In this document: positions 9,001 to 12,926 of the stretch, piece after piece | How the letters are laid out: every line of letters starts with the position of its first letter | How positions within the stretch are numbered: position 1 is the first letter of the stretch | DNA from: Calditrichia bacterium | Lineage (GTDB): Bacteria; Calditrichota; Calditrichia; RBG-13-44-9 | Length of the DNA stretch: 12,926 bases | Assembly: GCA_037381445.1 (NCBI GenBank) | Contig: JARRQT010000049.1 | Span: 1-12,926 of the forward strand | Direction of reading: 5' to 3' | Program-made: the position numbers

Positions 9001-12000
9001 AAGGGAGAGTTTGTCCGCCAGACGGTTCTCATTGGCGCGGATTCGATACCAATCATTGCGCTGATTTCATTTCTTATCGGCCTGGTTTTGGCCCTGCAAT
9101 CGGCTGCCCAGTTGCGGCAGTTCGGGGCCAATATTTTTGTGGCAGACCTGATTGTCATCAGTATGACCCGGGAGATGGGGCCCTTGTTGACCGCAATCAT
9201 GTTCGCTGGCCGTAGCGGCTCCGCTATCGCTTCTGAGATCGGCACAATGGTGGTGACCGAGGAGGTCGATGCGCTGAAGACCATGGCCATCAATCCGATC
9301 CGCTATCTGGTGGTGCCGAAAATGCATGCCATGATCTTTTCACTTCCGCTGCTGACCCTTCTGGCGGACATCGTAGGAATTCTGGGCGGAGTAGTGATCG
9401 GTTATTTTTACCTGTCGATCAGCCCCTGGGTCTTTTACAACCGCATGATTAGTGTGCTCATTTTCAGAGATTTGATGACTGGTTTTATCAAGAGCCTTAT
9501 TTTTGCCGGTTTGATTGTGATTACCGGCAGTTTTTATGGATTCCGGGTAAAAGGCGGTGCGCAGGGTGTTGGCAAAGTGACCACTGCGGCTGTGGTCACT
9601 GCTATTTTTCTGGTGATTTTGGCGGACAGTCTGCTGGGATTGTTGTTTTATTTTGATTGACAGAAAATAAAAGCGAAATATAATCTGGTATTTGGTGAAT
9701 CATGCAGCCAATTGTTGAAGTCCAAAATCTCTCTGCGCAGTTTGATGAGCGCGTTATATTGAAAAATATAAGCTTTGATATCATGCCGAATGAGATCACC
9801 GTTATTTTGGGCAAAAGCGGCTGCGGGAAGACTACGGTGCTGAAACATCTGGTTGGATTGTATGAATTGCAGCAGGGAACGGTGCGGATTATGGATTATG
9901 ATATAAATGAAATTACTGAAGATGATTATGCGGATTTGGTTCGCAAGATGGGGGTGCTTTTCCAAAACGGAGCACTGCTGAATTCCCTGAGTGTTGCGGA
10001 GAATGTAGCTGTCCCGTTGGAACAAAACACCCTGCTCTCACCCGGTATGATTGATTATCTGGTCCGCGTCAAATTGCAGTTGGTGGAGCTTGAAGATGCC
10101 TATTCTCTTTATCCGTCGCAGTTGTCAGGAGGAATGCGTAAGCGGGTCGCGTTGGCGAGGGCCCTTGCACTGGACCCGCCGCTGCTCTTTTGCGATGAAC
10201 CTTCCGCTGGTCTCGATCCGGTGACGCTGGCCGCTCTGGATGATTTGTTTTTGAATTTAAGAAATAGCCTGGGCATTACCCTTGTCCTGGTTACTCATGA
10301 AATACCCAGTATTCGCCGCCTGGCGGATCACATCATTTTTTTGGATGACGGACAGGTGCTTTTTTCAGGCCCGCTGGATGCAGCGCTGAAAAGTGATATC
10401 CCGCAAATAGGGCATTTCTTCGAAAAAGAAATAGTATGAAAGAACTGCACAAGTGGCAAGGACGATTGCGATTCCGCCCGTTGAATAATCCGTTTTTCCG
10501 TCAAAAAGACTGGAATCCTGGATTGAGCCTCAGGATTCAACTGTCCGAAGTTCACGCTCGAAGCGTTTCAGGACTTCGCTCTTCCGGAAAATTCCAATGA
10601 AATCTTCGGAAGTTTTGGCGGTTAATAGCCGGTGTCTGATTTTTTCATCTTTCAGGATCATAGCCAGATTTGCCAGAATCTGCAGGTAATGCTGCCGCCG
10701 GGTTATCGGACAGACCACCGCGAAAATAAGATTTACGGGCTGGCCATCCAGGGAGTTGAAAGCAATGCCCGTTTTCTGTCTGAAAACAACGATTTTCAGG
10801 CGCTGTATTATCGATGAAAGAACATGCGGAATGGCAATGCCCCCGCCAATGGCAGTGCTCATGGTTGATTCGCGTTTCGAAAATTCATATAAAAGCCTGG
10901 TATAGTCCGACACAATTTTCTGATCAGTTAATAAGGCGCTGATTTGCCCCAAAGCTTCCTTCTTGCCGCTGGCTTTCCCATTCAACTCGATGAGCTTTGT
11001 ATCCAGTAACGGACTCACAGAAACAAACGGATAGCTGCGTTTCTTCTGGACTTCATCCAGCAAAATCAAATCTTCTTCCGCTAACTGCCGTTTTTTCTGG
11101 TAACTCTCGCTCAGAATCATCGGGGGCCGTTCAATATCATGAATGTCTGTCAGGTTCAACTCATACTCATTGAATTCATTTTTAAGAATTGACAGGAACT
11201 GGGTTCTCAGTGAATCCATTAGAACAAGTTTGCCCTGCTGTTCCGCGCGGGTTAATAATACCTGCAGAATACCGAATGACATTTTGCGAAGTGAATTCAG
11301 ATCCTGGTTGCGGTGAATCCGAACTTTCAGATCGACCTGCGCCATGCAGGAAAGACCGAACCGGTTTTCAATATCGATCAGAAGTCCCGTTTCCACGCCA
11401 TAACCCGTGAAAAAGGGGAGGCGTTCAAGTAAATCGCGGCGTCCCGCATATTCACCGGATAAAGGTTGGTGAAAGAGAGCCAACTGGGGGAATAAAACAT
11501 TAAAAAATGGTTTCACCAGAATCTCTGTGACGCGTCCGCCGCCAGTGGCAGAGATCTTATTCCCGATTTGAATGGGCCTGCGGTAGAAACCTTTCACGAA
11601 AGAGATATCCCGGTTGTAAAGCAGGGGACCGATGAGCCCGGTTACGAAATGTTCCTCCATGTTCCGGATATCCGTATCCAGCCAGAGAATTATATCTCCC
11701 TTAGCGATATAGAGACTTTTCCACAGATTCTCGCCTTTCCCCCGGAGGTTTCCCATTTCAGGCAGGATTTCATCATCCTGATATACTCTGACACCTGATT
11801 TTCGACATATTTCCTGCGTTCCATCTGTAGAACCGCTGTCGATGACCATTATTTCATCAATAAGCGGAATCCTGTCATGGAGGGCTTCTTTAAGTCTCCT
11901 GATTATCCTGCCGATTGTAAATGATTCGTTTAAGGCCGGCAGACATAAACTGATGGTGTGTTTGTCCTGCCGTTTTTGTTTGAGCAACCGGTGAATATCG

Positions 12001-12926
12001 GAAAATTGGCCATGAGAGAAAGTCCTTAACTTTATCCATTGATTTGGGCGCATAAGGAGGCCTCCAATGTTTGGTTTAGGACTTCCTTGTTTGGATTTTC
12101 CTTATCGTCGGCGTATTGAGATTGACTGGGGTCGAAGGAGCATCTGAATCTAATATGCTAGTTTGAAACTCATAATCCACTCTCCGGGTTCCGGACAAAA
12201 AACGAAACCAGGATTTTTCTTCTCTCGCAGTTTAAATTTTAGGTTTCAGGATTTGTGATTTGCCGGTCAATTGCATCCCGGAACTATTTTATAATGCAGT
12301 AAAAAAAGACACTGATGAAAAAATGGACAATAGTTCTGAAAACAACGACAACGCAGTCTTCCCAAGAGGAATGCTTGTATTGCGGATAAGTGATTGTATA
12401 ATGGTAACTTAAATATTAATCGCACTATTGTTGGAATATTGAAAAAGAGTTGGCATAACTATTGTAAATTCATTTAATAGAAATAAGGGGAATAAAATGT
12501 TAACCACAAGAGAATCGGTTCAAAAGATTTTTGATTTTCAAAAAAATAAAGCAAGAGAATTAAAACGCCCCATAACATTTTCTGAAGCAGTTGCTTTGTG
12601 GTTTTCTCAGACGATGATTGAACAGACAAAAAATAAAAAGAAAATGAAAAAATTGACAGTTGAATCAATGATCTGATGGAGAGGAAATGAATGTGATGAA
12701 CGAGTATCAGCAAAAGCAACTGGAAGCTATTCAATCATTTTATTCCGAAATGAAGTCCAAGAGCGATGAAACTTTATCAGTGACAGAAGCAGTTATTGCG
12801 TGGTTCACAGATGGGTATGCCGAAGAATTCAGAACCAAATATTTGAAAGATCAGGTCGTATTCTCCTCCTAAAAGAGATATTCACACATTCAGGGATGAA
12901 GACAACTCCTCAAAAAAAGGCCGGGC

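Follow-up and report, generated by a model that had tools for sequence, protein, structure and literature searches.

A nutrient phosphorelay probably switches directly a biosynthetic glycosyltransferase of a Calditrichia bacterium, in which glucosyl-3-phosphoglycerate synthase (GpgS) is joined with a phosphotransferase system (PTS) EIIA domain in a single protein. Each of the two domains is well known individually; as a genome-wide survey's note had reported, no paper on the GpgS–EIIA fusion was found in the literature searched. The fusion itself and the conservation of its parts suggest regulation by phosphorylation, and we judge it somewhat better than an even bet that GpgS activity is adjusted in cis by phosphorylation of His410 through HPr. 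The gene lies on contig JARRQT010000049.1 (assembly GCA_037381445.1), in the 12,926-nucleotide stretch analyzed as a whole and called the window here. The earlier description of a gene for 507 residues is borne out by its translation as a single reading frame with zero internal stops and by a GGAGG ribosome-binding site (Table 1); a purine-rich motif also precedes the start codon in 9/9 of the fusion-gene upstream regions compared. The gene is solitary and runs convergently towards an Mla/MCE ABC operon. There are no Rfam matches within the window, and scans for promoters and terminators return 4 and 3 sites, respectively, no more than in shuffled sequences. A pattern for sigma-54-like sites has no match in the 450 nt upstream of nine fusion genes. 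One public contig, possibly from the source sample itself, covers the whole stretch. Among sequencing runs, with those containing a small share of the sequence left out of the habitat assessment, the top DNA match is a salt-marsh metagenome (again possibly the source), and a close relative is present in two sediment runs from one sample; none of the runs listed that contain the sequence is an RNA run.

Table 1. Features of the fusion gene, in window coordinates.
Feature	Position	Strand	Basis or remark
GpgS–EIIA fusion CDS	10530..12053	−	507 aa; full-length homologues known
GGAGG ribosome-binding site	12061..12065	−	sequence; 7 nt upstream of fusion start
GT81 glucosyl-3-phosphoglycerate synthase domain, aa 3–313	11115..12047	−	NF010496, PDB matches, Foldseek
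DxD metal-binding motif D126-T127-D128	11670..11678	−	alignment; equivalent to M. tuberculosis GpgS D134-S135-D136
Linker, aa 322–344	11022..11090	−	AlphaFold2: ordered, two short helices
PTS EIIA_2 domain (fructose/mannitol/Ntr class), aa 349–491	10581..11009	−	PF00359; PDB IIA-Ntr matches
Arg394 (E. coli IIA-Ntr Arg57)	10872..10874	−	alignment to 1A6J
His410, predicted acceptor of phosphate (His73 of E. coli IIA-Ntr)	10824..10826	−	alignment to 1A6J
Tyr456, replaces second His (IIA-Ntr His120)	10686..10688	−	alignment to 1A6J
Long C-terminal helix, aa 482–506	10536..10610	−	AlphaFold2; ~15 residues beyond Pfam EIIA end

The catalytic half of the protein is a GT81 GpgS, an identity given in the survey's note and upheld here by a match to the NCBIfam equivalog NF010496 at 370 bits, above its cut-off of 262. 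Pfam Glycos_transf_2 covers residues 35–161, GpgS and mannosyl-3-phosphoglycerate synthase (MpgS) structures in the PDB are matched with E values of 1e-60 to 1e-70, and the predicted GT-A fold superposes on the solved enzymes with Foldseek TM scores (target) of 0.84–0.93. Shared with GpgS of M. tuberculosis (3E25/4Y6N) and M. hassiacum (7P5L) are that fold, the DxD motif, the K-D-E network, the PLSGE and GGRVTE sequences, the RxHRN loop and the dimer-interface Pro and Leu. Residues with catalytic roles described for the M. tuberculosis enzyme, DxD included (PMC2581804), have counterparts: Lys114/Glu232, Tyr229, His258 and Val186/Thr187 correspond to K106/E221, Y218, H247 and V175/T176. The full set of K106, D126, D128, E201, Y218, E221, R245, H247 and N249 is present in 101/101 aligned fused proteins. 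The solved enzymes differ in being single-domain proteins of ~325 aa, to which the fusion adds a 185-aa extension bearing EIIA, and in having Arg101 and Arg261 where the fusion has Asp93 and Gln250.

Markers of the donor sugar are mixed. The PLSGE serine, which has been associated with glucose preference, occurs in 100/101 of the aligned fused proteins, yet the best match by both sequence (E 1.8e-70) and fold is the GT81 MpgS of Rubrobacter xylanophilus (3F1Y), over a part that lacks an EIIA domain; this enzyme also has Gln at position 250 in place of the mycobacterial Arg261. The catalytic domain might therefore favor GDP-mannose or lead to something that is not a free solute, either of which would be compatible with PTS control. 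An unrelated Methanococcoides-type GpgS homologue in 7/10 fusion genomes and the failure to find a downstream enzyme in this genome point the same way. We nonetheless consider the idea improbable: S199 of PLSGE, H247 and N249 agree with GpgS of mycobacteria and not with the Rubrobacter protein, where Ala (PLAGE), Asn and His take these places, the equivalog cut-off is passed, and relatives adjoin genes for GH13_18 phosphorylase-like and MggS-like proteins. The serine is an imperfect marker of glucose use, since M. hassiacum GpgS has Gly at this site.

The C-terminal half contains a full-length EIIA_2 domain with its histidine motif retained, as claimed before: PF00359 matches with 106 bits (cut-off 27; E 1.9e-30) over model positions 2–143 of 144, and the sequence GGGIAIPH terminates at His410. 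This residue, present in 108/110 fused homologues, aligns with His73 of E. coli IIA-Ntr, named as the phospho-site in PMC2215328. The surrounding pattern RE..T.G.G.A.PH is complete (R394, E395, T400, P409 and H410); these positions and D436 are invariant (22/22) in the closest group, and Arg394 is found in 79/81 canonical fused rows, all of which supports an intact receiver site. Tyr456, present in 79/81 of the same rows, was considered as the mark of a dead or fusion-specific domain and rejected, for Tyr is also found in 39/80 short and 21/67 long EIIA relatives. A literature search on the roles of His111 and Arg49 of IIA-Mtl found nothing. The two free EIIA_2 proteins reported for the genome, with GRGVAIPH and EHGLAVPH, are indeed there, but derivation of the fused domain from them is unsupported (27% identity to each). 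No match to the fructose/glucose-class EIIC (PF02378) was found in the genome, which has only mannose-class IIC/IID, belonging with an EIIA of another fold family; the fused EIIA domain thus has no sugar permease to serve.

The genome encodes a complete EI/HPr relay. The survey's note had listed EI, HPr, HprK and a nearby IIB(Man/Sor) gene, and all were found: EI, encoded at C21:55606–57453, is a single copy of 615 aa that lacks a GAF domain and matches PtsP from model position 165 only, HPr, encoded at C172:17091–17357, is likewise single and carries the H15 and S46 motifs, and HprK and mannose-class PTS parts complete the set. From this inventory, the phosphate donor is most likely general HPr. 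EI is matched in 37/37 genomes of the order, and EI and HPr occur together in 5/5 further genomes with fusion loci. The relay looks like the regulatory PTS of Group R (EI-R, HPr, HprK and IIA-Man), which a 2008 paper regards as a functional analogue of EI-Ntr and for whose EI-R it gives no functional information (PMC2405797). Common to both are the GAF-less EI, hprK and IIA-Man adjoining hpf, and HPr adjoining mannose-class IIC/IID, as a comparison of gene context and GAF absence shows. Two neighboring candidates for partners were set aside: the IIB(Man) gene, at a distance of four genes, belongs to a different PTS class and adjoins the fusion in just 5/9 of the other loci, the five coming from a single family, and one of two small divergent ORFs is present in 35/37 genomes of the order irrespective of the fusion.

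The label "PTS(Ntr)-type" given earlier is only loosely right for the receiver and does not fit the relay. The fused domain shares with EIIA-Ntr (PtsN; E. coli 1A6J) the fold, the Arg57/His73 phospho-site (Arg394/His410) and a terminal, non-transport role. PtsN, however, is a free protein that acts in trans and is fed by PtsP and NPr, whereas this EIIA is covalently part of an enzyme, has Tyr for His120, and has a GAF-less EI and a single HPr available to it. Its score is 94 bits with the model for fructose IIA and lower with the two PtsN equivalogs (63.6 and 65.7 bits against cut-offs of 138.7 and 221), all three below cut-off. Phosphorylation by a dedicated PtsP/NPr-type system, whose GAF domain senses glutamine/2-oxoglutarate, would fit the closest solved EIIA structures (IIA-Ntr proteins), the resemblance of the hpf-hprK-IIA(Man) context to an ancestral rpoN cluster and the link of the solutes to nitrogen. 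Neither a GAF-bearing EI-Ntr (PtsP) nor a separate NPr was found in the genome, which is 91.85% complete, so this proposal is largely refuted; in addition, the frames that hold the 38 EI matches across the 37 genomes of the order reach 634 aa at most, and ptsP is said to occur in Proteobacteria only (PMC2405797). We give it very little credence. With no GAF-bearing EI, nitrogen sensing would be indirect at best.

A fixed arrangement of the two halves fits the structure prediction. AlphaFold2 models the whole chain with a pTM of 0.89, which implies a confident domain arrangement, and the linker (residues 322–344) with pLDDT values of 79–94; mean identity of the linker among 21 close relatives is 54%. 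When the GT domain (1–323) and the EIIA part (343–507) were modeled as separate chains, the complex score was 0.00 against a mark of 0.32, and this result was left out of the evidence. The whole-chain model bears on whether a phosphorylated EIIA might act elsewhere, by binding or regulating another protein or by buffering the HPr pool, with fusion coupling only expression or location and leaving GpgS unaffected. Free EIIA-Ntr proteins do work through partners to which they bind, GlmS among them, and the isolated position of the gene beside the Mla/MCE operon would suit such an output. The pTM, the constant length of the fused proteins (about 505–510 aa) and the conserved C-terminal helix (L502 in 97/110 and E493 in 88/110 fused homologues) fit a fixed intramolecular arrangement instead, and we assign output in trans a low probability.

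The fusion occurs within and beyond the order. Eight other genomes with full-length fusions at 57–66% identity had been counted, a number that stands, although 36 other genomes were searched and not 30; the ninth copy, said to be cut by a contig end, is so cut at query residue 340. Among 86 Calditrichota genomes there are 9 full-length fusions and 1 contig-cut fusion, and further examples occur among Spirochaetota and Eisenbacteria proteins. A RefSeq protein under the name Salinispira pacifica, taken as a cultured carrier, has the fusion too. All 107 fused GpgS domains group on a single branch (SH-like 98), where the one "solo" sequence is a piece of a fused protein, indicating that the fusion was kept across the three phyla. 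The fused EIIA domains were not resolved as a single branch (4 changes; FastTree, 148 columns). Related GT81 enzymes bear USP sensor domains in place of EIIA, which suggests that the GT81 step attracts regulatory modules. A weak search among longer fused forms (889–2535 aa) gave 19 matches, 0 with PF00359.

Conservation of the EIIA part speaks on both sides of the question of phosphorylation. Comparison with a close relative shows purifying selection: 6 synonymous and 0 amino-acid-changing codons, where ~75% changing would be expected by chance (the count draws on 35 sites in the CDS, out of 40 differences listed from a total of 65). For identical pairs of genomes, fused EIIA identity is 40–56% vs 60–76% for free EIIA orthologues; the fused domain thus drifts faster, which counts against the phospho-switch. 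In a spirochaete subclade, R394, E395 and P409 are lost (R394 or P409 kept in 0/20) with fold and fusion retained, and 18/19 fusions in 301 Spirochaetota genomes are of this remodeled kind. Three genomes with the remodeled fusion still match EI and HPr, so the domain can persist without a canonical site. Related EIIA domains are also appended to cation/proton antiporters. EIIA could, then, do its work unphosphorylated: it might sense a ligand or ion, offer a surface for docking, for instance to unphosphorylated HPr or to a partner in K+/cation transport, or stabilize the enzyme structurally. For the gene described here this seems unlikely, if a good deal less so than the dedicated nitrogen system, as the entire phospho-site is invariant in its own group and the His is retained even in 18/20 of the remodeled rows.

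The end product is less clear than the glucosylglycerate (GG) proposed in the survey's note. The GpgS step stands, but GpgP, not identified in that note either, was not found: TIGR01486 (GpgP/MpgP HAD-IIB) is matched neither here nor in the family's 5 other genomes with the fusion, and neither an MggA/MggS-like pair (the syntenic mid-contig site included) nor a GH13_18 GG phosphorylase was found in the genome. TIGR01486 is present in 4/4 fusion genomes of the sister family. That coexistence of fusion and GpgP, and the wrong fold, led to rejection of the EIIA His as a built-in phosphatase for glucosyl-3-phosphoglycerate (GPG). A neighboring MtnX-like HAD-IB phosphatase, encoded at C49:13824–14528, is a weak candidate for the missing enzyme (1/9 fusion regions, two of which end nearby). 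The single histidine phosphatase of the genome (C136), beside a GTP cyclohydrolase II-like gene, is an alternative candidate, with mycobacterial GpgP as precedent for such a protein in GPG dephosphorylation. A pair of GT4 genes, one of them MggS-like (236–245 bits, below the cut-off of 640), occurs in 8/10 fusion genomes of the order and 1/27 others. Its presence in 8/9 other fusion genomes points to mannosylglucosylglycerate (MGG) as the putative ancestral product; spirochaete fusions adjoin GH13_18, MggS-like and HAD genes. The MGG pathway known from Petrotoga mobilis and from Rhodopirellula baltica (GpgS, MggA, MggB and MggS; PMC3736172) shares the MggS-like pair with most fusion genomes, although not with this one, and its characterized GpgS is unfused.

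In the mechanism we favor, a dimeric GT81 enzyme would convert NDP-glucose and 3-phosphoglycerate to GPG, the first committed step to GG or MGG. A single relay would pass phosphate from PEP through EI (His201) and HPr (His15, with Ser46 under HprK) to His410 of the fused EIIA, and the phosphorylation state could be relayed via the ordered linker and C-terminal helix to set glycosyltransferase activity in cis. The input would be the general PEP/pyruvate and keto-acid state. The link of GG to nitrogen scarcity asserted earlier is published, for MGG likewise, and under nitrogen limitation both substitute for glutamate as K+ counter-ion. 2-Oxoglutarate inhibits EI (PMC6659692), and nitrogen control by this route is plausible: in the preferred direction, nitrogen shortage would raise 2-oxoglutarate, inhibit EI and leave His410 dephosphorylated, freeing the enzyme to synthesize an anionic solute that contains no nitrogen and would replace glutamate. 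The whole chain, with the fused enzyme as direct output of the GAF-less EI/HPr/HprK relay of deep-branching phyla and GG/MGG made upon dephosphorylation independently of PtsP/NPr, is offered tentatively, at odds well short of even. A precedent is Salmonella EIIA-Ntr, which inhibits the biosynthetic enzyme GlmS in a phosphorylation-dependent manner, but in trans (PMC5024086).

Both GG and MGG build up when nitrogen is short, and regulation of GG levels has been called elusive (PMC5381378). If the proposal is true, an appended EIIA controls a metabolic enzyme in cis, whereas the cases compared in the literature act in trans, and GG/MGG would be tied post-translationally to nitrogen shortage in the absence of a PtsP/NPr system. 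The union of enzyme and receiver in one protein makes this regulation testable in vitro with four purified proteins, and it would give the regulatory PTS a concrete target, in Calditrichota as in related phyla.

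The GpgS–EIIA fusion described in the genome-wide survey's note is a single open reading frame, with equivalog and Pfam matches on one 507-aa protein (see table). Full-length copies (57-66% identity) occur in 8 other genomes among 86 of the phylum, and a ninth further copy breaks off at residue 340, where its contig ends, the same numbers of copies as in the note; this recurrence shows that the fusion is not an assembly artefact. All ten fusion genomes fall within one order of 37 genomes, and in the remaining genomes of the phylum the best match was never stronger than EIIA-only. 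The fusion is real and conserved, a new variant assembled from two known parts. The gene is solitary: on one side it converges with an Mla/MCE-type ABC operon, on the other it diverges from two small ORFs.

Features of the fusion gene and its surroundings
Feature	Position	Strand	Remarks
GpgS-EIIA fusion CDS	10530-12053	-	single uninterrupted ORF, 507 aa
GGAGG site	7 nt ahead of ATG of fusion gene	-	sequence
GpgS domain	residues 3-313		NCBIfam GpgS equivalog, 370 bits, cut-off 262
PTS_EIIA_2 domain	residues 349-491		Pfam, model positions 2-143 of 144
Mla/MCE-type ABC operon (MlaD, auxiliary lipoprotein, STAS-MlaE, ATPase)	7018-10439	+	
Small tandem ORFs, 59 and 61 aa	12497-12676 and 12687-12872	+	no Pfam family over cut-off
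YjbQ/UPF0047 gene, mannose-class IIB gene, MtnX-like HAD-IB phosphatase	C49 (same contig):12882-14528		just past window end

In several relatives, from both families, the Mla/MCE-type operon adjoins the fusion gene or is found close to it; its lipoprotein ORF is seemingly short at the N-terminus (138 aa, compared with about 205 aa in relatives). The small ORFs share a similar core (EAVALWF/EAVIAWF), the first being present in 5/5 same-family fusion regions and the second in 35 of the 37 genomes of the order. Beyond the window, the IIB gene is isolated, its IIA and IIC/IID partners being encoded far away, and the MtnX-like phosphatase is patchy among relatives.

Alignment to solved GT81 enzymes, with residue roles from excerpts of PMC2581804, maps D126-x-D128, K106, E221, Y218, H247, V175/T176 and PLSGE (197-201), each of which is kept in at least 100 of the 101 fused proteins aligned. 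The dimer-interface residues Pro193 and Leu266 are conserved as P182 and L255. An AlphaFold2 model of the fusion (pLDDT 92, pTM 0.89) matches GpgS/MpgS structures with target TM-scores of 0.84-0.93. The best match of the GT domain is the MpgS of R. xylanophilus, with which Q250 agrees; S199, H247 and N249 agree with mycobacterial GpgS. Glucose would be the likelier donor, and the competing assignment, a mannose donor or another product, appears improbable.

Among the best 120 of 7997 database matches, 110 (query included) carry both domains; by their labels, those that carry a name belong to Calditrichota, Spirochaetota and Eisenbacteria, which makes a Calditrichota genome the most likely source of the window. 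Fused proteins are annotated as plain GpgS or IIA components. The full-length fusion occurs in 19 of 301 sampled Spirochaetota genomes. A FastTree phylogeny of 182 GT domains, picked for their similarity to the query, unites the 107 fused rows without exception on a single branch (SH-like 98). The one "solo" row there turned out to be a fragment whose cluster also contains fused members. With few columns (148) and long branches, the EIIA tree (306 rows) needs 4 changes and does not confirm a single origin. A sister group of GT81 enzymes (Chloroflexota and others) bears N-terminal USP domains in place of EIIA. Larger fusions also occur, in which GT81 GpgS is combined with a second GT, with glycerate kinase (PF02595), or with GH13 and GT4 domains.

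The histidine of the GIAIPH motif is intact, as the note had stated. In alignment with E. coli IIA-Ntr (1A6J), R394, H410 and Y456 correspond to R57, H73 and H120; His73 is the phosphorylation site there (excerpt of PMC2215328), and H410 is kept in 108/110 fused proteins. Tyr456 is not unusual, occurring among related EIIAs. After exclusion of 9 short, long or near-duplicate rows, 81 of 101 have a canonical site (R394 in 79, P409 and H410 in 81) and 20 a remodelled one (R394 and P409 in none, H410 in 18). R394, E395, T400, P409, H410 and D436 are invariant in the 22 rows closest to the query. Comparison with a close relative (two sediment runs, one sample) gives 65 differences, 40 listed and 35 of those in the CDS; among these 35, the EIIA part has 6 synonymous and 0 changing codons and the GT part 20 and 8, where chance would give about 75% changing. 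Counting against this evidence, fused EIIA domains diverge more (40-56% identity over eight genome pairs) than free EIIA orthologues (60-76%), the GT domain showing 64-72%. A role for the EIIA domain independent of phosphorylation, with which such divergence and the remodelled sites would be compatible and the retained H410 less so, is unlikely, if the most serious competitor to phosphorylation-dependent control.

In a spirochaete subclade (loci L214-L231, L039, L041, L043) the remodelled site reads SG..V.TPIG.NI.FFH, and the fusion genes have GH13_18 and MggS-like neighbours; in a few rows the His is gone too. Some cation/proton antiporters also carry one or two appended EIIA_2 domains (locus L206:449-2647, on contig C39 of genome G071; P0207, P0212, P0213, P0217), one with CBS domains as well; one from the host family likewise has Tyr at the second-His position.

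The PTS inventory of the note (EI, HPr, HprK, free EIIA_2, nearby IIB) was recovered in full. The host genome encodes a single EI (615 aa, active-site His201 in GGKNSH), whose N-terminus lacks a GAF domain. The only HPr carries the His15 and Ser46 motifs and is encoded next to mannose-class IIC/IID genes; HprK and IIA-Man adjoin hpf, IIB-Man lies near the fusion gene, and there are two free EIIA_2 proteins. Fructose/glucose-class EIIC gave no match in this genome, which is 91.85% complete. All 37 genomes of the order gave an EI match, and no EI frame exceeded 634 aa. Through its GAF domain, PtsP responds to glutamine and 2-oxoglutarate (excerpt of PMC13104625), and it is described as restricted to Proteobacteria; an EI of "group R", GAF-less and accompanied by HPr, HprK and IIA-Man, has been proposed as its functional analogue (excerpts of PMC2405797), and the host PTS fits group R by gene context. 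The fused EIIA scores 94 bits against the fructose IIA model and 64-66 bits against PtsN models, all under cut-off. Because the single EI is GAF-less, HPr is unique and the PtsN scores fall short, the "PTS(Ntr)-type" relay of the note does not earn its label, and the one HPr is most likely the phosphodonor. A dedicated PTS(Ntr) as donor, to which the site alignment with IIA-Ntr might point, is very improbable given that inventory.

Regulation of the fused GpgS through EIIA is likely from domain architecture and site conservation. Somewhat favoured overall is a route in which phosphate would pass from PEP through EI and HPr to His410, whose phosphorylation state would alter GpgS activity in cis. 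The nearest precedent, phosphorylation-dependent inhibition of GlmS by EIIA-Ntr (excerpt of PMC5024086), acts in trans, in contrast to the cis control proposed here; a trans output of the fused EIIA has that precedent in its favour and the confident whole-chain model (pTM 0.89) against it, and is improbable. The note's link between glucosylglycerate (GG) and nitrogen scarcity has support in excerpts of PMC5381378 and PMC3694870, by which GG and mannosylglucosylglycerate (MGG) build up under nitrogen shortage, taking glutamate's place as K+ counter-ion. Since 2-oxoglutarate inhibits E. coli EI (excerpt of PMC6659692), a GAF-less relay could still read nitrogen, and that inhibition would make the dephosphorylated fusion the active form.

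HAD-IIB GpgP/MpgP gave no match in the host genome, as the note had found for GpgP, or in the 5 other fusion genomes of its family, and is present in all 4 of the sister family. An MggA/MggS-like GT4, a two-gene pair wherever loci show it, occurs in 8/10 fusion genomes versus 1/27 other genomes of the order, a pattern rather than a statistic, the kin being non-independent. A GH13_18 phosphorylase-like gene occurs in 6/10 fusion genomes and an unrelated Methanococcoides-type GpgS homologue in 7/10, neither in the host genome. At 14/19 spirochaete fusion loci a GH13_18 gene is found no more than 1.5 kb away, and at 2/19 an MggS-like gene. Since such genes accompany fusions, the ancestral product was probably MGG or GG (pathways, excerpt of PMC3736172; GG phosphorylase context, excerpt of PMC7178133). 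In the host genome, profile searches for MggA/MggS returned distant GT4s only, and the pair is missing in mid-contig (contig C2:18467-19954, from a MeaB-like gene to the next conserved gene) between flanking genes that enclose it in three relatives, which suggests a clean loss. With the known downstream genes not found there, the host must either remove the phosphate from GPG, the GpgS product, with a non-orthologous enzyme, which has precedent (excerpt of PMC3240985), or use GPG otherwise.

Large secreted-looking host proteins (contigs C250 and C205) have MGH1-like (GH63-type) glycoside hydrolase domains and are probably not cytoplasmic GG hydrolases. A trehalose-phosphate phosphatase gene lies in a small cluster (contig C57:1490-2296), so trehalose may be another solute.

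No paper joining "glucosyl-3-phosphoglycerate synthase" and "EIIA" was found in the literature searched, the same result as in the note; few subscription papers are covered there, so a passing mention may exist. Among the papers listed by further searches, none concerned a GpgS-EIIA fusion. The window adds an order in which PtsP is missing throughout, a genome retaining the putatively regulated enzyme without known downstream genes, the co-occurrence of the fusion with the MggS/MggA-like pair, and a canonical-site member outside the spirochaetes.
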